NCBI GenBank assembly: GCA_963682135.1
Contig: OY821645.1
Coordinates: 2,848,001-2,912,000, forward strand
DNA length: 64,000 nt
DNA from: Methanothrix sp.
GTDB taxonomy: Archaea; Halobacteriota; Methanosarcinia; Methanotrichales; Methanotrichaceae
Reading direction: 5' to 3'
Shown: positions 30,979-48,541 of the stretch, in pieces
Position numbering within the stretch: the stretch's first letter is position 1
Layout of the letters: each line of letters starts with the position of its first letter
Notes under the pieces: generated by a model
What the model saw: only the letters and a program-made list of their open reading frames with translations
The model's database searches: none
Told to the model about the DNA's origin: nothing
Translations under genes and position numbers: made by a program

Positions 30979-32449
<1,471 letters not shown>

Positions 32450-32575
32450 AACGTTATTGGGTATGCGAAACTGCATACCCGTCCCCTTAACCAGTTGGAA
32501 GCTGAAAATGTCGACCGAGACCAAACAAGAGAAATTAGCCAGCTATTCTGATTATTAGCTGGGCAATGATAACCC

Positions 32576-32648
32576 GGGCTTGTAGCTCAGCTGGTAGAGC
32601 GCCGCCTTTGCAAGGCGGAGGCCCTGGGTTCGAATCCCAGCAAGTCCA
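32576..32648 (+). tRNA. tRNA-Ala(UGC)
   Basis: GGGCTTGTAGCTCAGCTGGTAGAGC...TTTGCAA...GGTTCGAATCC...CAAGTCCA. Confidence 0.97.
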
Positions 32649-32781
32649 AATTCATATGCACACATTGAGGCAGACTCGATGTGGAAGGGCAGAGGTCCGT
32701 TCATTGACGGGACGGTCCTGTGAAGCCGTGCACAAGCTTTGCGACCAGACGCTCACTGAGTTTAGTGGGGCATAAGCTGCT

Positions 32782-35662
<2,881 letters not shown>

Positions 35663-35719
35663 GCAGCGCCCCGCTAAACTCGGGCGAAATCTGGTCGCAA
35701 AGCATAAATTGTGCATTAC

Positions 35720-35777
35720 TCCACGGTAAGCTTCCAACGGGGAAGCAATTACTGCCGGTTCGAATCCGGACCATGGA
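35720..35777 (+). ncRNA. tRNA-like element (t-element) in the 5S rRNA leader
   Basis: Acceptor-like stem TCCACGGT/ACCATGGA, hairpin GCTTCC/GGAAGC, T-arm CCGG-TTCGAAT-CCGG; ends 3 nt before 5S. Confidence 0.7.
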
Positions 35778-35780
35778 TTC

Positions 35781-35907
35781 GAGCATAGCGGCCAGAGCGA
35801 CAGGGAGACTCCTGAACCCATTCCGAACTCAGAAGATAAGCCTGCCCACGTTCTGCACTGTACTCAGATGCGCGAGCTCTCGGGAAATGCAGATCGCTGC
35901 TATGCTC
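35781..35907 (+). rRNA. rrf: 5S rRNA
   Basis: GAGCATAGCGGC...GAACCCATTCCGAACTCAGAAGATAAG...GCTGCTATGCTC terminal helix. Confidence 0.95.
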
Positions 35908-38181: not shown

Positions 38182-38270
38182 CTTTGTGCCTTTGTGGTGA
38201 GCGTGGTAGTAATCACTTGTCTCTCATCCCTACCGAGAAAACCAAACCACAAAGGCACAAAGCCACAAAG
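38182..38270. repeat. REP/MITE-like element with a perfect 17-bp inverted repeat
   Basis: CTTTGTGCCTTTGTGGT (38182-38198) / ACCACAAAGGCACAAAG (38246-38262) plus an extra CCACAAAG. Confidence 0.75.
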
Positions 38271-38292
38271 AACGCTCAAGAGACGAACTAAT

Positions 38293-39525
38293 ATGTTTAT
38301 GAATTCAAATAACAGCAAGATCAAGCTTGGTTATGGTCAAGGGTGCCTCGATCTGATGTTGGCTGAAGGGGCAGAGGTAGTGCTGGCAGAGGAGCTTGCC
38401 GGCGCGCCTGCTGGTGAGATTGATAGATCAATAGATCATGCCCGTGGAAAGAGTCTCGATGATTTTGCCGGCTCTAAATCAGCCAGCATTCTGGTGAGCG
38501 ATATCACCCGTCCTGCTCCCAGTCATCTCATGCTTCCTCCTCTCATCCGCCGGCTTAAGGATCTGGACATTAGCGATCTGAAAATTGTCTTTGCTCTGGG
38601 CACGCACCGCAGGATGACGGTGGAAGAAGAGCGCTTGCTATTGCGCAGCTGCACCAGCCTGCCTTACATGCAGCATGACCCCAAGAACTGCGTATGTTTG
38701 GGCGAGACAGGGCGGGGCACGCCAGTGGAGATCCTGGAGACGGTCGCCTCATCTGATCTGATCGTGGCCACAGGAAATATCGAGTATCACTATTATGCCG
38801 GCTACAGCGGCGGAGCCAAAGCCGTCTTGCCCGGAATAAGCTCGGAGCGTTCTGTGATCAAAAACCATGCGTTGATGAGAGATCCGCTCGCCATCACGGG
38901 AAGGCTGGATAGCCCGGTGCGCCAGGACATGGAGGACGCGGCTGGAATAGCGGGGCTGGACTTCATCTTGAATGTCGTTCTGAACGGCAAAAAAGAGATC
39001 GTGCAGTCGGTTGCAGGCGACTTTATCTCCGCTCACCGCATTGGGGCTGCTACCGTGGATCGCATGTACCGACGAGCCGTTAAGCCGGTGGAGATTGTTG
39101 TGACCTGTGCCGGGGGCAGGCCCAAAGACCTCAATCTCTTCCAGGCGCAAAAGGCTCTTGACAATGCCAAGAATGCCGCCCTGCCGGGAGGAAGCATCAT
39201 CCTGGTGGCGGAGTGCTGCGAGGGGCTGGGCCATCCCGTCTTCGAACGATGGGCAAGGGAAGCGACATCTGCCGAGGATTGCTGGGAGCGCTTCGGTCGG
39301 GAGTATGAGTTTGGCGGGCACAAGGCTGCTTTTCTGGCCAAGGAGTCCATGCAGCATCATCTGATCCTGGTCTCGGCTCTGCCGAGGGATAAGGCGGAGA
39401 TGTGCTTCTTTCAGCCGGCGGCAACCCTTGAGCAGGCTCTGGAGCTGGCCAGAGCCAGGCAGGGCAAAGATGCGCGCATGCTGGTCATGCCGCACGGCAA
39501 TCTGACCCTGGCTGTGGCGAAATGA
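38293..39525 (+). CDS. larA: Nickel-dependent lactate racemase family protein
   Basis: VSDITRP, ALGTHR, HYYAGYSGGAK, DLNLFQAQKAL, AECCEGLG. Confidence 0.9.
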   Translation: MFMNSNNSKIKLGYGQGCLDLMLAEGAEVVLAEELAGAPAGEIDRSIDHARGKSLDDFAGSKSASILVSDITRPAPSHLMLPPLIRRLKDLDISDLKIVFALGTHRRMTVEEERLLLRSCTSLPYMQHDPKNCVCLGETGRGTPVEILETVASSDLIVATGNIEYHYYAGYSGGAKAVLPGISSERSVIKNHALMRDPLAITGRLDSPVRQDMEDAAGIAGLDFILNVVLNGKKEIVQSVAGDFISAHRIGAATVDRMYRRAVKPVEIVVTCAGGRPKDLNLFQAQKALDNAKNAALPGGSIILVAECCEGLGHPVFERWAREATSAEDCWERFGREYEFGGHKAAFLAKESMQHHLILVSALPRDKAEMCFFQPAATLEQALELARARQGKDARMLVMPHGNLTLAVAK

Positions 39526-39585
39526 TTTTATTCCCATTTCAACCGAAAACTGTATTATCTATAACGATCAAATAGATAGTTCGCT

Positions 39586-39897
39586 GCGAGATAAGGCTGA
39601 AGCTGATTAAGCTCCAGGAAATGGGCACCTCGCTTAATTGCGAAGTCTTCGGTGAATGCGAGAATCTATCGGACCTCGTTTCAGTTCTTGTATGAGCGCG
39701 GCAAGGATCGAAATGTGTGCAGGCGAAGCGGGAGCAGGCTCTTCATCTCTGATGATGTGTCCCCGTAAGAAGGGCGCTGTGTCAAAATCCAGTGCTGCCT
39801 CGCTGTTGCCTGTGTGATGGCGCAGGGCGGGCTCAAGGCCGCCACTACGGTGGTTGGTCCCTTTGAGAAGGGCATTGTGGCTCGATGCTTGGCTCGC
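39586..39897 (+). ncRNA. Candidate ~312-nt structured non-coding RNA, family unassigned
   Basis: BRE/TATA-like GAAAACTGTATTATCTATAA ~25 nt upstream; 5'/3' ends pair (GCGAG.TAAG / CTTG.CTCGC); hairpins CCAC-TACG-GTGG, CCCTT-TGAG-AAGGG, CCTGTGT-GATG-GCGCAGG; lies between convergent genes with no credible ORF. Confidence 0.6.
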
Positions 39898-39929
39898 CTA
39901 AAACATCACTGTGTTAATTCAAAAAAATT

Positions 39930-42800
39930 TTATTCCGACTTTTCTGCCATTTGCAGAGCCGCCTTCAGCTCCTCCATCTTCACCGGCTTGCTGATGTATC
40001 CATCCATTCCGGCGGCAAGGCATCTCTCCCTGTCTCCTTGCAGGGTATAGGCGGTCATAGCGATTATCCTGGGCTGTTTTGCAGCAGGCAGGCTGCTGCG
40101 AATGAATCTGGTGGCCTCCAGTCCGTCCATCTCCGGCATTTGAATGTCCATGAGGATCACGTCATAAGATTTTTGCTCCAAGCTTTTCAGCAATTCCTTG
40201 CCGTTGAAGGCCACATCAGCTTTATACCCCAGATGCTTGAGCATGGCCAATGCCACTTTTTGGTTGATCGGATTGTCTTCGGCCAGAAGAATGCGAAGAT
40301 CTTGATTTGTGGCGGGAGGCAAAGTAGCATCTCTTCGCGGCTTTACAGCCTTCTCTTCTCCCCCAAGAATGCGCAGCAATGCAATGCCTAGCTGGGCTTC
40401 TCTGACCGGCTTGGTTAAGAAGGCGCGGGTCTTGGCCTGCGAGGTTGCTTTCTCTCCCAAAAAGCCGATCTCTATCACCGGCAATGATTGCAGCTCTTGC
40501 TTGCTCAGTCTTTCTGCCAGCAAGGGCCATTTTGCGATATCGCTATCAACAATAATTGCATCGTACCTCTCCCTGTCCAAGAGCTGGCAGGCTTCCCAGT
40601 CCGAGCCTGGCTTTGCAGCAGAGACTGCAAAGGAGTGAAGATGATTGGCCAGCATCTTTCGGCTCGCTTCTTTATCGACTGCAATCAGGGCTTTCTTACC
40701 TTTTAGTCTGGAGTAATCTCCTGCATATTGATTCCTGGCAGCTTCGCAAGTCCCTGTCCCTTTTTCGGGCAACAGAAAATGGAATTGGGATCCTACTCCT
40801 GCTTTGCTCTCTGCCCAGATTCGACCGCCCATCAGCTCCACCAACCGGCTGCTGATGGCTAGCCCAAGGCCAGTTCCGTCATACCGGCGGGCAAGTGATG
40901 AGTCCACCTGGCTAAAGGGGAGAAAGAGCCGGGACATGCGATCCTCCGGGATGCCTATCCCCGTATCTCTCACTATGAAATGATATGCCTTTTCTTCTTT
41001 ATCTCTGCAGACTAAGACCGTTACCTCTCCTGATTGTGTGAATTTGACGGCATTGCTGGCAAGGTTACCAAGAACCTGCCCCAGACGCAAGGCGTCGCCC
41101 ACCATTCTCCGTGGCACATCGCCGGCCAGAACATAAGCCAGTTCCAGGCGCCTCTCGGCGGCATGGGCCGCAACCTGGTCGAGAGAGGTCTCGATAACCT
41201 CCTGCAAATCGAATGGCAGGTCCACAATATCCATTTTTCTGGCATCGATCTTGGAGAAATCCAGTATCTCGTTGATGATGCAAAGCAGTGAGAGGCCGCT
41301 AATGCGAATGGTCTTCACATAATCCCGTTCCACAGGACCAAGATCGCTTTCTAAGAGCAGGTCAGTCATGCCTATGACAGCATTAAGCGGCGTTCTTATC
41401 TCATGGCTCACATTGGCGGTGAACTCCGCTTTCGCTCTGGCTGAAGCCTCGGCAGCGTCCCTGGCCCGGACCAGCTCTTCTTCCATCTTCTTCTGCTCGG
41501 TTATGTCTATGCAAACGCCCAGGGCCGCATAAAACTCGCCGGATTCGTCAAGCAGGGGATATATGGAGTACATTGCCGGAAACTTCTCCTGGCTCTTTCT
41601 TAAAAGAGTCCTAAATCCGGAGAACGTCGTCTCTTTTCTCATGCGGCGAGCCGCTTCAGCCAATTTATCGCGATCCTCGGAAACAAGCAGCATAGAGACC
41701 GGTTTTCCTAAGACCTCTGCACGACTGTAGCCGAAACATTTCTCAGATCCTGGAGAGAATTCCAGGATGAGAGGCTCCTCACTCCTGGCATCAGCAATGA
41801 TAAAGGAGACATTCTTAGCCGCTTCAAAGATGGCTTTCAAATGCCTCTCCCTCTCATGCAAAGCTTTTTCCGCCTTTTTTCGCTCTGTCAGCTCATTATT
41901 CAAATCAGCGGTTTTCTCTATTACCATCTTGCCTAGAAAGTCCTGTCTGCTGGCCACCAGGTAAAACAGGCCGACAAGAAGTCCCAGAATTATCAGGCCT
42001 GCCATTTGGACGATTCTCAGCGGCACCTGCACTGCGTCAATCCATCCGCCGGCAGGCACTCCTGCCAGCTCCCAGTAGCCGTCGGGCAGCTCTATTCTGT
42101 AGATCACCGGAGCGGACTGGAATACTCTGCTTTCCCCATAAAACACCTGTCCGCTGCTGTCTCTCAATGCCATATCCAGGCTACTGGAGCTGTTGTCCAA
42201 TCCTGCAGCTTGCAACATCTGTGGAATATGGATGGTTATGGAAATGAATCCCCAGAACGTCTCATTTTCATAGACGGCTTTCCTGGCCACCATGCCCAGG
42301 CCGCCTCTTTTCATCTCATGAGGATTGGTGATAACCAGATGATGTGTGTCAATGGCTTTTTGCATATCTTCCCGGAAGGCGGGAGAAAGGTCCTGGAAGA
42401 GGCTGCGTCCTCTCATGGCTTCATAATCCGTTGCCGGATATACATACTGAAAGACTCCATTGGGCGCTATGGCAAGATTGCGAATTCCGTCGGTGCTGGA
42501 ATAGATATGCTCTGAGTAGATCACAAACTCATCATTTAATGCGGGTTTAGGCGAGCTGATCTCAGCCTGAACAAAGGCATCCAGGCCTTCGAGCAGTTCC
42601 AGGCGCTGAGAAATAGCCATAGCTAAAGAATTTCCCTGCGAATCAAGCTGGCCGGCAATGCGGGCCTGCTCATCAGTTATGAGCTGGGATTGATACCAAA
42701 GGCCTGCCTGCCACCAGATCAATAATAAAGCAATAGCAATCAGAGCAGTCTGCAGTTGAGTCTTTCTCATTGGCCTTCCTTTTATAGGCAGATGTTCCAT
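39930..42800 (-). CDS. Hybrid sensor histidine kinase (CHASE-PAS-HisKA-HATPase-REC-REC)
   Basis: NVSHEIRTPLNAVIG, NAVKFT, DTGIGI, GTGLGL, LAEDN..MDIQMPEMDG. Confidence 0.95.
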   Translation of the reverse strand: MEHLPIKGRPMRKTQLQTALIAIALLLIWWQAGLWYQSQLITDEQARIAGQLDSQGNSLAMAISQRLELLEGLDAFVQAEISSPKPALNDEFVIYSEHIYSSTDGIRNLAIAPNGVFQYVYPATDYEAMRGRSLFQDLSPAFREDMQKAIDTHHLVITNPHEMKRGGLGMVARKAVYENETFWGFISITIHIPQMLQAAGLDNSSSSLDMALRDSSGQVFYGESRVFQSAPVIYRIELPDGYWELAGVPAGGWIDAVQVPLRIVQMAGLIILGLLVGLFYLVASRQDFLGKMVIEKTADLNNELTERKKAEKALHERERHLKAIFEAAKNVSFIIADARSEEPLILEFSPGSEKCFGYSRAEVLGKPVSMLLVSEDRDKLAEAARRMRKETTFSGFRTLLRKSQEKFPAMYSIYPLLDESGEFYAALGVCIDITEQKKMEEELVRARDAAEASARAKAEFTANVSHEIRTPLNAVIGMTDLLLESDLGPVERDYVKTIRISGLSLLCIINEILDFSKIDARKMDIVDLPFDLQEVIETSLDQVAAHAAERRLELAYVLAGDVPRRMVGDALRLGQVLGNLASNAVKFTQSGEVTVLVCRDKEEKAYHFIVRDTGIGIPEDRMSRLFLPFSQVDSSLARRYDGTGLGLAISSRLVELMGGRIWAESKAGVGSQFHFLLPEKGTGTCEAARNQYAGDYSRLKGKKALIAVDKEASRKMLANHLHSFAVSAAKPGSDWEACQLLDRERYDAIIVDSDIAKWPLLAERLSKQELQSLPVIEIGFLGEKATSQAKTRAFLTKPVREAQLGIALLRILGGEEKAVKPRRDATLPPATNQDLRILLAEDNPINQKVALAMLKHLGYKADVAFNGKELLKSLEQKSYDVILMDIQMPEMDGLEATRFIRSSLPAAKQPRIIAMTAYTLQGDRERCLAAGMDGYISKPVKMEELKAALQMAEKSE

Positions 42801-42869
42801 TCTCCTTTCAACCTTCTCTAACGGTTGTCTGATAAACTATTTCCGCTCATAAATATTGGGTACTAAGCA

Positions 42870-43370
42870 ATGTGGCCTGAGGAACAGACTCGCGGTCGGC
42901 TAATGGATGGAATGGATACGGCATTCTTCAATAACCCCGTGGTGGTAAGGAGGTTTATGCCTGGCGACCTGGAGGCAGCCTTAGAGATCGATAGGGAGGT
43001 CTTCGGCGGATATGATCCTGCCATCTTCACAGCCTTTTATGAATACCACGGCGGCAGCTCTCTTGTCGCAGAGGTTAGTGGAATTGTGGCAGGCTTTGTC
43101 CTGGGATTTCGGCATACTCCTTTCGAAGGCAGGGTATTCTGGCTGGCCGTGAGGCCGCTCTTTCAGAGTCGCAACATTGGCATGAGGCTTATGCTGGAGG
43201 TTTTGCATGCCTTCCGGCAGATGGGAGCACGCAGTGCCACCCTGGAGGTACGAGTGAGCAATAAAAAGGCCCAGTCGCTTTATTCCATGTTGGGCTTTCG
43301 CATGATAGGCATCAGTCCTGCTTACTACAGCGACGGTGAGGCGGCCATTATCATGAAGATGCGACTGTAA
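42870..43370 (+). CDS. RimI-like GNAT N-acetyltransferase (start probably 42903 or 42912)
   Basis: LAVRP.FQ.R.IG, LEVRVSNKKAQSLY..LGF, YYSDGEAA. Confidence 0.9.
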   Translation: MWPEEQTRGRLMDGMDTAFFNNPVVVRRFMPGDLEAALEIDREVFGGYDPAIFTAFYEYHGGSSLVAEVSGIVAGFVLGFRHTPFEGRVFWLAVRPLFQSRNIGMRLMLEVLHAFRQMGARSATLEVRVSNKKAQSLYSMLGFRMIGISPAYYSDGEAAIIMKMRL

Positions 43371-43408
43371 GCACTATAACGGTGAATAAAATATTTTTTA
43401 ATTGTTTG

Positions 43409-44074
43409 TTACTCCACCCCGCGAGCGGTCAGGCGGAAGTCTGCCATGATGCCCTCCGGGGAAGAGCGGTGTTTCATGATCCGGGCGCTGCGCATCCCCT
43501 CACCTTTCTTCTCCAAAAAGATGATTGCTTTGCAGATATGTTCCAGTCCCGTGCCTCCAATAGGCCGCAGCGAGTTGTTCTCTATGTCCATGTAGACTTG
43601 ATTGGTTATTACTGCGGGAATCCTGTGCCTGCGAGCAATCTCCTGCAGCTCGGAGAGCTGGACTGTTAATGTTCGGCGAACAGAACGGTTATCATCTGCT
43701 TCCAGAAGCACACGGTAAAGGGATGTTGCCGAATCCAGAATTACCAGACCTAAATTTTGGCCGGCGATCTTGGATGCCTCGCGTATGGCTATTGCCTGCT
43801 GCTCCAGGCTCATGGGTTCAAAGATCATGATCTTGGCAGCCATCTCTTCTGCGCCGGGGCCGGCGATCTGTTTGAACCTCTCCGCGGAAAAGCCTTCCGT
43901 ATCTACGAATATGACGCGTAGACCGCGGGCTACGGCCTGTACTGCCAGTTGCATGACAATATTGCTTTTTCCCGTGCCTGCTTCTCCGTAAAGCTGGGTT
44001 ATTATGCCTGACTCAAATCCTCCACTCAAGAGAAGATCCAGGCTCTGGCAGCCGGAAGGCAAACGGTCGAGCAT
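43409..44074 (-). CDS. radB: DNA repair and recombination protein RadB
   Basis: LD.LLSGGFESG.ITQLYGEAGTGKS, DTEGFS.ERF, TNQVY, KHRS. Confidence 0.95.
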   Translation of the reverse strand: MLDRLPSGCQSLDLLLSGGFESGIITQLYGEAGTGKSNIVMQLAVQAVARGLRVIFVDTEGFSAERFKQIAGPGAEEMAAKIMIFEPMSLEQQAIAIREASKIAGQNLGLVILDSATSLYRVLLEADDNRSVRRTLTVQLSELQEIARRHRIPAVITNQVYMDIENNSLRPIGGTGLEHICKAIIFLEKKGEGMRSARIMKHRSSPEGIMADFRLTARGVE

Positions 44075-44090
44075 GGGCTATCACAGACAA

Positions 44091-48469: not shown

Positions 48470-48541
48470 TGCGGCTGCCGGGATTCGAACCCGGGTTACA
48501 GGCTTGGGAAGCCTATGTCATAACCACTGGACCACAGCCGC
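48470..48541 (-). tRNA. tRNA-Gly(CCC)
   Basis: GCGGCTGTGGTCCAGTGGTTATGACATAGGC-TTCCCAA-GCCTGTAACCCGGGTTCGAATCCCGGCAGCCGCA. Confidence 0.97.

Follow-up and report, generated by a model that had tools for sequence, protein, structure and literature searches.

A multi-copy family of structured RNA genes with tandem four-way-junction modules in Methanotrichaceae

The window (the whole stretch of 64,000 nucleotides that was analysed) belongs to the complete, 3.04-Mb genome of an archaeon, a Methanothrix species (99.87% complete). Between a LarA-family gene and a convergent histidine-kinase gene it carries an RNA gene of ~328 nt, here called P1. We are close to certain that P1 belongs to a real, expressed and structured non-coding RNA (ncRNA) family which is not in Rfam. 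Taken as a whole, the explanation that we favour, with slightly better than even confidence, is that P1 is an abundant ncRNA of an uncatalogued multigene family of Methanotrichaceae, which would act in trans as a scaffold or a sponge; the scaffold or sponge mechanism, considered by itself, is put forward tentatively.

Methanotrichaceae dominate the acetoclastic methanogens of wetlands, rice soils and digesters, and Methanothrix ranks among the world's most important producers of methane. To our knowledge, no genetic system exists for Methanothrix, and hardly any of its regulatory RNA biology has been described. A structured RNA family with a very high contig depth in environmental RNA libraries would offer a new handle on the physiology of these organisms, and it gives a ready metatranscriptomic marker. 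Its promoter element is dedicated and its modular fold is new, and it is an archaeal addition to the short list of large, ornate ncRNAs without an assigned function.

The earlier note on this DNA, made from the letters alone, had described a GC-rich, highly structured, ORF-poor block between the stop codons of larA and of a histidine kinase, and this description was confirmed in part: the hairpins and the TATA-like element were found and long ORFs were lacking, while the folding energy, the GC content and the pairing of the two ends were not as described. The flanking genes were found on either side of the block, as described (Table 1). The GC content of the block was 0.42-0.63, compared with 0.55-0.66 in the coding flanks, so that it is not GC-richer than these; AT-rich sequence is confined to the spacers that border it. 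In Rfam 15, the content of the window amounts to one rRNA operon and two tRNAs, and nothing else.

Table 1. Features of the RNA locus and its neighbours (positions are those of the window)
Feature	Position	Strand	Basis
LarA-family protein gene, upstream neighbour, outside the RNA gene	38194-39525	+	Pfam Lar_N (E 8.6e-45) and LarA_C
Family-specific promoter motif, ~50 nt, ending at the predicted transcription start	39537-39587	+	nhmmer promoter profile, E 1.8e-13
TATA-like element TATCTATAA	39556-39564	+	Read from sequence
8-nt inverted repeat (arms 39556-39563 / 39571-39578, 7-nt spacer, 7/8 match here)	39556-39578	+	Read from sequence
ncRNA itself (paralogue P1), ~328 nt	39583-39910	+	Sharp conservation limits and contigs of four RNA libraries
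5' domain, closed by GCUGC (39583-39587) / GCGGC (39698-39702)	39583-39702	+	RNAalifold
Conserved single-stranded linker, 5' domain to first module	39703-39718	+	Unpaired in both consensus folds
Module M, four-way junction: outer stem and hairpins A', B', C'	~39719-39816 (39722-39816 in model match)	+	RNAalifold; R1 and R2 matches
Direct repeat, 23 nt, 78% identical, 98 nt apart	Copy 1 39759-39781 (hairpin B' and start of C'); copy 2 39857-39879	+	Repeat search
Predicted clamp helix GUGAUG / CAUCAC	39814-39819 / 39904-39909	+	Consensus fold, 21 sequences
3' module, four-way junction: outer stem and hairpins A, B, C	39821-39910	+	R1, 103.9 bits, E 2.3e-27 (sequence in the R1 seed, a match by construction)
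Hairpin A, UACG loop (GCCAC-UACG-GUGGU)	39841-39854	+	Covarying stem
T-run TTTTATT, downstream of the RNA, overlapping the kinase stop codon	39928-39934	+	Read from sequence
CHASE-PAS hybrid histidine kinase gene, convergent neighbour	39930-42800	-	Pfam

A BLAST search with positions 39526-39929 matched 18 of the 24 genomes examined from the same genus and none of the 16 from two other families. At nine places, in seven of the 24 genus genomes, the match was near full-length (at least 360 of the 404 nt, 76-97% identity). The limits of the conserved unit are sharp: similarity sets in near 39543 and breaks off past ...CAUCAC(UG), near 39911, and the flanks were unalignable even in a copy with 97% identity. 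Downstream of the conserved end, orthologues have T-rich stretches within ~5-20 nt, and the T-run listed in Table 1 could, by its letters, serve as an archaeal termination signal.

In the same genome, a profile of the orthologues matched further loci at 1.963 Mb (P2, E 7e-21), 3.041 Mb (P3, 7e-9) and 1.217 Mb (P4, 2e-6), with a weak match at 2.126 Mb (P5). All four lie within ORF-poor gaps, and what the copies have in common is the 3' domain. At least five paralogues are therefore present, and all five were recovered at E 1e-12 to 2e-27 with R1, a covariance model of the 3' module built from the alignment described below. R1 also gave a weak match to the segment directly upstream of the 3' module, with E 0.0085 for P2 and E 0.5, genome-wide, for module M of P1. 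With R2, another 3'-module model, whose training set included orthologous M modules, module M of P1 scored 38.9 bits (E 2.5e-9), and when filters were switched off two tandem modules were recognised in P1-P4 and one in P5. A full member of the family is thus composed of a promoter motif of ~50 nt, a variable 5' domain and two tandem four-way-junction modules of ~90 nt, and P1 carries the 3' module recognised by R1, the second module upstream of it and the promoter motif shared by the family. The 23-nt direct repeat is a trace of the module duplication. This multi-copy, lineage-restricted family of tandem modules had been overlooked in the earlier note, which dealt with the single locus.

The distribution of the family was examined in genome samples, so that each absence below holds for the genomes searched and is no proof that the RNA is missing elsewhere. 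R1 matched 47 of 151 genomes of the class. Among Methanotrichaceae it matched 46 of 74 genomes, which carry between 1 and 11 copies and represent 9 of 15 genera; in the window's genus, 32 of 34 genomes were matched. In the four other families of the class that were sampled, R1 matched none of 76 genomes, and R2 matched none of 150 other genomes over 26 families of the phylum. To judge from these searches, the family appears to be restricted to Methanotrichaceae, having been found only there among the genomes searched. It was not detected in 28 of the 74 Methanotrichaceae genomes, including all seven of one genus (91-99% complete), and is therefore not essential to the lineage. As for carriage by viruses, the 19-nt hairpin-C pattern occurred in two contigs and was taken as chance in both, one occurrence lying inside a coding ORF of a high-GC phage and the other reaching 12 bits.

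The promoter motif is a property of the family. Its profile gave exactly four significant matches in the 3.04-Mb genome, upstream of P1, P2, P3 and P4, the next best match having an E of 0.3; the same search of the genome found no motif at P5. In other genomes the motif recurs ~390-500 nt upstream of 3' modules that belong to other paralogue types. In P1, TATCTATAA is centred ~23 nt upstream of 39583, the first base covered by RNA contigs, and this spacing fits the geometry of an archaeal TATA box. The TATA-like element at the right distance, as reported before, is thus upheld, and it is found to be part of a conserved promoter motif. It sits inside the 8-nt inverted repeat, whose arms are kept in all paralogue types of the alignment, and this palindrome is a candidate operator.

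Evidence of expression came from environmental RNA. Fourteen runs labelled as RNA, drawn from many studies, contained 12-16% of the words sampled over 901 nt with the RNA at the centre. Positions 39583-39910 are covered by Logan contigs from four metatranscriptomes, one from each of four studies. In library X3, 46 of 157 contigs were at least 99% identical to the window, and the summed word depth peaked at ~8.6e4. One 330-nt contig of library X11 spans 39592-39892; in library X9, two contigs start at 39583 and one ends at 39910. Such contigs give no strand, true ends or expression level, and DNA carry-over in RNA libraries is possible, so their ends are hints and not mapped termini; they agree with the promoter and with the boundaries of conservation. 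In the flanks, RNA-library contigs covered none of larA and only traces of the kinase. Bare flanks are to be expected, since in most relatives the RNA lies in another context, and they were not counted as evidence. Library X3 also contained a back-joint from 39879 to 39788 and a loose end after 39759 running into sequence that resembles the 5' end. These joints were not read as a circular RNA; they most likely reflect paralogue contigs or chimeras between two similar modules.

The structure of the 3' module was assessed on a structure-blind MAFFT alignment of 15 sequences (11 orthologues and four paralogues). In this alignment, 90.8% of the cells were paired, compared with 35-51% when the partners were slid, and 11 of 30 pairs showed compensatory changes, a result reached by none of 500 shuffles. 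R1, built from this alignment, gave 65 matches over 48 fetched loci. In the R1 alignment of these matches, 92.9% of the cells were paired, 25 of 30 pairs were compensatory and 164 compensatory cells were counted against 41 expected; since this alignment was fitted to the model and includes related sequences, these counts overstate independence and the MAFFT result weighs more. The covariation among homologues that the earlier note had proposed to look for is thus present. Family-wide, it is strong in the outer stem of this module, where 9 of the 11 pairs show it.

Many of the covarying positions often hold G-U pairs, in agreement with the remark that such pairs favour the + strand. As such pairs would be A-C mismatches on the other strand, they indicate, together with the orientation of the promoter, that the + strand is the right one. 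By contrast, the claim of a highly structured RNA was not sustained by the folding of the single sequence: against dinucleotide shuffles, the minimum free energy had a z-score of +0.17 on the + strand and -0.13 on the - strand, which is uninformative either way. The structure is shown by covariation and not by single-sequence energy.

The consensus fold obtained with RNAalifold for 21 full-length orthologues contains 89 pairs. The closing stem of the 5' domain was 98.1% paired in these 21 sequences. The 5' domain, which is variable in the family (~120 nt in P1, longer in other paralogues), holds a hairpin of the GCUCC...GGAGC type, where divergent orthologues have an insertion of 18-21 nt. The clamp helix is consistent with the data as a predicted element; five of its six pairs are invariant in the 21 sequences, so that covariation can say little about it. 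In the 3' module, the UACG tetraloop hairpin seen earlier is present, with a stem that covaries across the family. The most conserved element of the family is hairpin C (GCRCU-GUGGAUC-RGYGC), preceded by hairpin B, which is short and has an A-rich loop. At P1 hairpin C reads GCAUU-GUGGCUC-GAUGC, with the loop GUGGCUC where the family consensus is GUGGAUC, so that the loop is not invariant.

A different outcome was obtained for the stem that had been proposed to join the two ends of the RNA. The strands GCGAGAUAAG and CUUGGCUCGC are complementary in P1 only as letters. Over the 21 orthologues, 85.2% of the cells of this stem were paired. One of its pairs is broken in 8 of these sequences and another is open in 20, and as many as 228 of 500 shuffles did equally well. 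Local alternatives for both terminal strands were 98.2% paired, a value matched by none of 500 shuffles.

For the function of the RNA, the model that we prefer, tentatively as regards mechanism, is that it works in trans as a scaffold or sponge for a protein. Duplicated modules multiplied by 1-11 paralogues per genome would present many binding sites for one protein on the same hairpin surfaces, and the shared palindromic promoter element would place all paralogues under one dedicated DNA-binding regulator. The model was chosen because the hairpins are duplicated and multiplied, the palindromic promoter is shared, the contig depth is high and the genes are free-standing. It is possible, though we would not count on it, that the 1-11 paralogous RNAs form a regulon which titrates or scaffolds a lineage-specific protein, or which forms RNA-only particles, and which controls one central aspect of physiology. 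The hypothesis is testable through its repeated binding modules and its shared operator, both of which are predicted. In either case the family would be a regulatory or structural RNA system that had gone unrecognised; if the scaffold reading were true, it would be an archaeal functional analogue of Csr/Rsm.

No partner protein was identified among the neighbours scanned. The gene neighbourhoods of the copies are heterogeneous (hydrolases, thioredoxin, DapB, TPR proteins, Hsp20 and others), and two kinds of neighbour were considered further. A hybrid kinase adjoins RNA copies in three contexts; the adjacent kinases are paralogues, only ~40% identical, of an abundant protein type, and the linkage is too weak to be of use. 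DUF1699 is the one recurrent neighbour, placed upstream of P4-type copies in 7 of 37 loci and divergently beside another RNA copy in a different genus. It was rejected as the partner since 148 of the 151 class genomes have it, RNA-less ones included, and only one of its six copies here is RNA-linked. A fold search with DUF1699 gave only sub-threshold similarities, and among the titles and abstracts searched for it only unrelated cancer or enamel papers were found. DUF1699 is therefore kept as a lead only.

The most serious rival to the protein scaffold is a function carried by the RNA alone, to which we give roughly a one-in-six chance in informal terms: the module would be a ligand-binding, catalytic or self-assembling fold, such as a sensor acting in trans, a ribozyme or a homo-oligomeric particle. 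Homo-oligomeric RNA particles have recently been described for some large bacterial ncRNAs. The perfect four-way junctions, the strongly conserved loop and junction nucleotides, the tandem duplication of the domain and the very high contig depth would all suit such a function, as would a self-complementary GAUC in the consensus loop of hairpin C and the failure to find a linked protein gene among the neighbours scanned. However, the GAUC is lost in P1 (GGCUC) and in some orthologues, no Rfam ribozyme or riboswitch model matched even at E up to 10, and joints of the cleavage type were not seen in the contigs. Control in cis of the riboswitch kind is unlikely because the copies are free-standing genes.

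A minor rival reading takes the unit for a non-autonomous element, mobile now or in the past (SINE-like, MITE-like or a transposon-guide type of RNA), with copies scattered by a transposase or a retroelement and an RNA that serves the element and not the cell. This would account for multiple copies with sharp boundaries and for P1-type orthologues of 88-92% identity in unrelated contexts, with only one relative syntenic with the window on both sides of the RNA. Orthologues of window positions 42870-44090 directly follow larA in three of the five genus genomes examined; the RNA gene and the kinase gene are therefore a ~3.3-kb indel block, missing between the same neighbours in these three genomes. 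DDE transposase genes adjoin 2 of the 18 loci scanned for neighbours. On the other hand, a scan of neighbouring genes revealed no linked gene for a transposase, TnpB, IscB or a reverse transcriptase, and a repeat search found no terminal inverted repeats at the RNA unit. The paralogues are old and divergent, with base pairs kept by compensatory change, the copy number is low (1-11), the P4-type copy keeps the same neighbour in seven loci, and the family has its own conserved promoter.

It is improbable that the RNA is a cis element, whether of larA (as its 3' UTR or a 3' fragment processed from it) or of the convergent kinase (as an antisense or a terminator element). The RNA begins 58 nt past the larA stop on the same strand, and the recurrence of hybrid kinases beside the copies could be read in this way. 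Against this, none of the larA orthologues in the five other genus genomes examined is followed by the RNA, its promoter motif is common to unlinked paralogues, the neighbours of the other copies are unrelated, and the kinases that adjoin it are only distant paralogues of one another.

A small protein is more improbable still. A 53-aa ORF on the + strand (39656-39817) and a 64-aa ORF on the - strand (39681-39875) are present in the window and in its nearest relatives, but neither is conserved across the 21 orthologues, in line with the ORF-poor block described before: the former is intact in 6 of 21, and the latter is interrupted by stops or frameshifts in six or more of the 21, for the most part the divergent ones. 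Furthermore, single-nucleotide indels sit within conserved blocks of the orthologues, and substitutions track base-pairing rather than codons.

That the RNA is a much-diverged paralogue of RNase P RNA or SRP RNA, an idea which the earlier note had kept open on account of a similar length and short letter matches, is the weakest reading and can practically be set aside: neither RNaseP_arch (RF00373) nor Archaea_SRP (RF01857) matched at E up to 10, the canonical genes are encoded elsewhere in the genome (2973124-2973427 on the - strand, 216.2 bits, and 1929548-1929862 on the + strand, 193.5 bits, respectively), and the tandem four-way junctions fit neither architecture. The resemblances to both RNAs are thus letters that are present but meaningless. 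What the P1 locus shares with archaeal RNase P RNA and SRP RNA is a size of ~300 nt, stability and free-standing genes with their own promoters. Of the two identities that had been proposed for a stable independent ncRNA, the housekeeping paralogue thus falls and the new family stands, with full-length orthologues, covariation, its own promoter, metatranscriptome contigs and the lack of an Rfam match.

That lack was established at two levels. At the gathering score, Rfam 15 gave no match in the RNA region, the paralogue loci or the DUF1699 loci beyond rRNA and tRNA; when values of E up to 10 were allowed, 39450-40000 gave four noise matches only (E 4.4-8.3). The covariance-model scan proposed with the first description therefore leaves the novelty in place. 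In the literature, no account of this RNA was found among the titles and abstracts of papers on Methanothrix or Methanosaeta in journals open without subscription. The RNA family is previously uncatalogued, being absent from Rfam 15 and from the literature searched.

Membership of other known classes was also considered. ARAGORN found no tRNA or tmRNA gene in 39400-40050, and the Rfam tRNA matches of the window lie elsewhere. Each module is a four-helix junction of about the size of a tRNA, as in tRNA and tRNA-like cloverleaf domains, including Y RNA modules, but the arm lengths and loops of those domains are not those of the modules here. A Y RNA in a Ro RNP was discarded, as the TROVE domain (PF05731) had no match in the 99.87%-complete genome while controls were detected. 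H/ACA or C/D box guides were likewise rejected, their Rfam matches (E 4.4-8.3) being far under the gathering scores. Complementarity to 16S, 23S and 5S rRNA reached at most 9 nt, compared with 10-12 nt in the top shuffles, and a genome-wide search with 14-mers returned the RNA locus itself and a few scattered words only. The archaeal guides resemble the present family in being multi-copy, with shared motifs and variable segments, and differ from it in size and fold.

CsrB and RsmX-Y-Z are bacterial sponge RNAs under the control of GacS/GacA. Like the present family, they consist of several abundant paralogues per genome with a shared palindromic upstream element, and of repeated hairpin units which show one loop motif. 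The logic of the scaffold model may accordingly be likened to that of the bacterial Gac/Rsm (Csr) system, a likeness of logic only and one that would imply no homology of sequence or fold, given that the host is archaeal and the units here are of 90 nt. Membership of the CsrB/Rsm group itself was rejected: CsrA (PF02599) had no match in the genome, and the repeated unit is a four-way junction and not a GGA hairpin.

Finally, OLE, GOLLD, ROOL, raiA and IMES are large structured ncRNAs whose functions are unknown or have recently begun to emerge. The present family is like them in its length, its elaborate fold, its restriction to a lineage, its discovery by comparative or metatranscriptomic means and its high apparent abundance in the environment. 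It differs from them in matching none of their Rfam models and in being archaeal and multi-copy, with tandem modules and a dedicated promoter motif.

Between larA and the next genes, neither the RNA gene nor its neighbour, the hybrid histidine kinase gene, was present in three of the five genomes of the genus examined (G024, G020 and G022). The 3.3-kb region 39540-42830 of the window, which carries the two genes, has thus been inserted or deleted as a block. The complete archaeal rRNA operon of the window is located some 4 kb upstream from the RNA gene (P1).

Two further matches were recorded elsewhere in the same genome (see the table). Because the fifth paralogue, P5, consists of a single module and is devoid of the promoter motif, it may have undergone decay or truncation. 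The second match was a weak candidate module, scored with the two covariance models R1 and R2.

In other genomes, RNA genes of the family were sometimes grouped, 1-15 kb apart (contigs G011:C28, G056:C90, G054:C31, G130:C1 and G081:C38). In addition, some RNA copies adjoined genes of the DUF1699 family (PF08004), which were placed upstream in the same orientation or pointed away from the RNA gene; in G011 and G056, P1-type and P4-type copies lie on either side of a DUF1699 gene. DUF1699 itself was present in 148 of the 151 genomes of the class, in 2-21 copies. Its AlphaFold model (pLDDT 84.8) predicted an alpha/beta domain followed by a C-terminal three-helix bundle. In this model, the bundle weakly resembles homeodomain or transposase HTH DNA-binding domains (Z about 5.3, rmsd 1.8-1.9 Å over 47 residues), at a level below that which would exclude a common arrangement. 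The three-copy cluster of G054:C31 also contained a gene for the TATA-binding protein (TBP; locus L089, 11686-12327), with ParA-like and MazF-like genes close by; the presence of the TBP gene may be a coincidence.

At the Methanosarcinaceae loci L063-L072, ORF-free gaps of about 420-610 nt flanked the DUF1699 genes in several other genera. No Rfam family was detected in these gaps, and a quick BLAST search indicated conservation within genera only.

Features located in the genome of the window (G000) and at other loci
Feature	Sequence	Position	Strand	Remarks
DUF1699 gene adjoining RNA copy	G000	1215776-1216165		L079 1474-1905
DUF1699 gene adjoining RNA copy	L090	2613-3017
DUF1699 gene adjoining RNA copy	L091	14384-14833
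P5	G000	2126150-2126239	-
Weak candidate module	G000	334902-334992	+	E 0.22 (R1), 0.018 (R2)
rRNA operon	window	30979-35905		16S, spacer tRNA, 23S, 5S
Second tRNA	window	48470-48541	-

Finally, the contigs of the metatranscriptome run X3 showed a single back-joint, from 39879 to 39788, in the stretch 39759-39879 of the window, together with a loose end after 39759 that ran on into 5'-end-like sequence. Both are probably due to paralogue or chimeric contigs, the alternative being circular or rearranged forms of the RNA.
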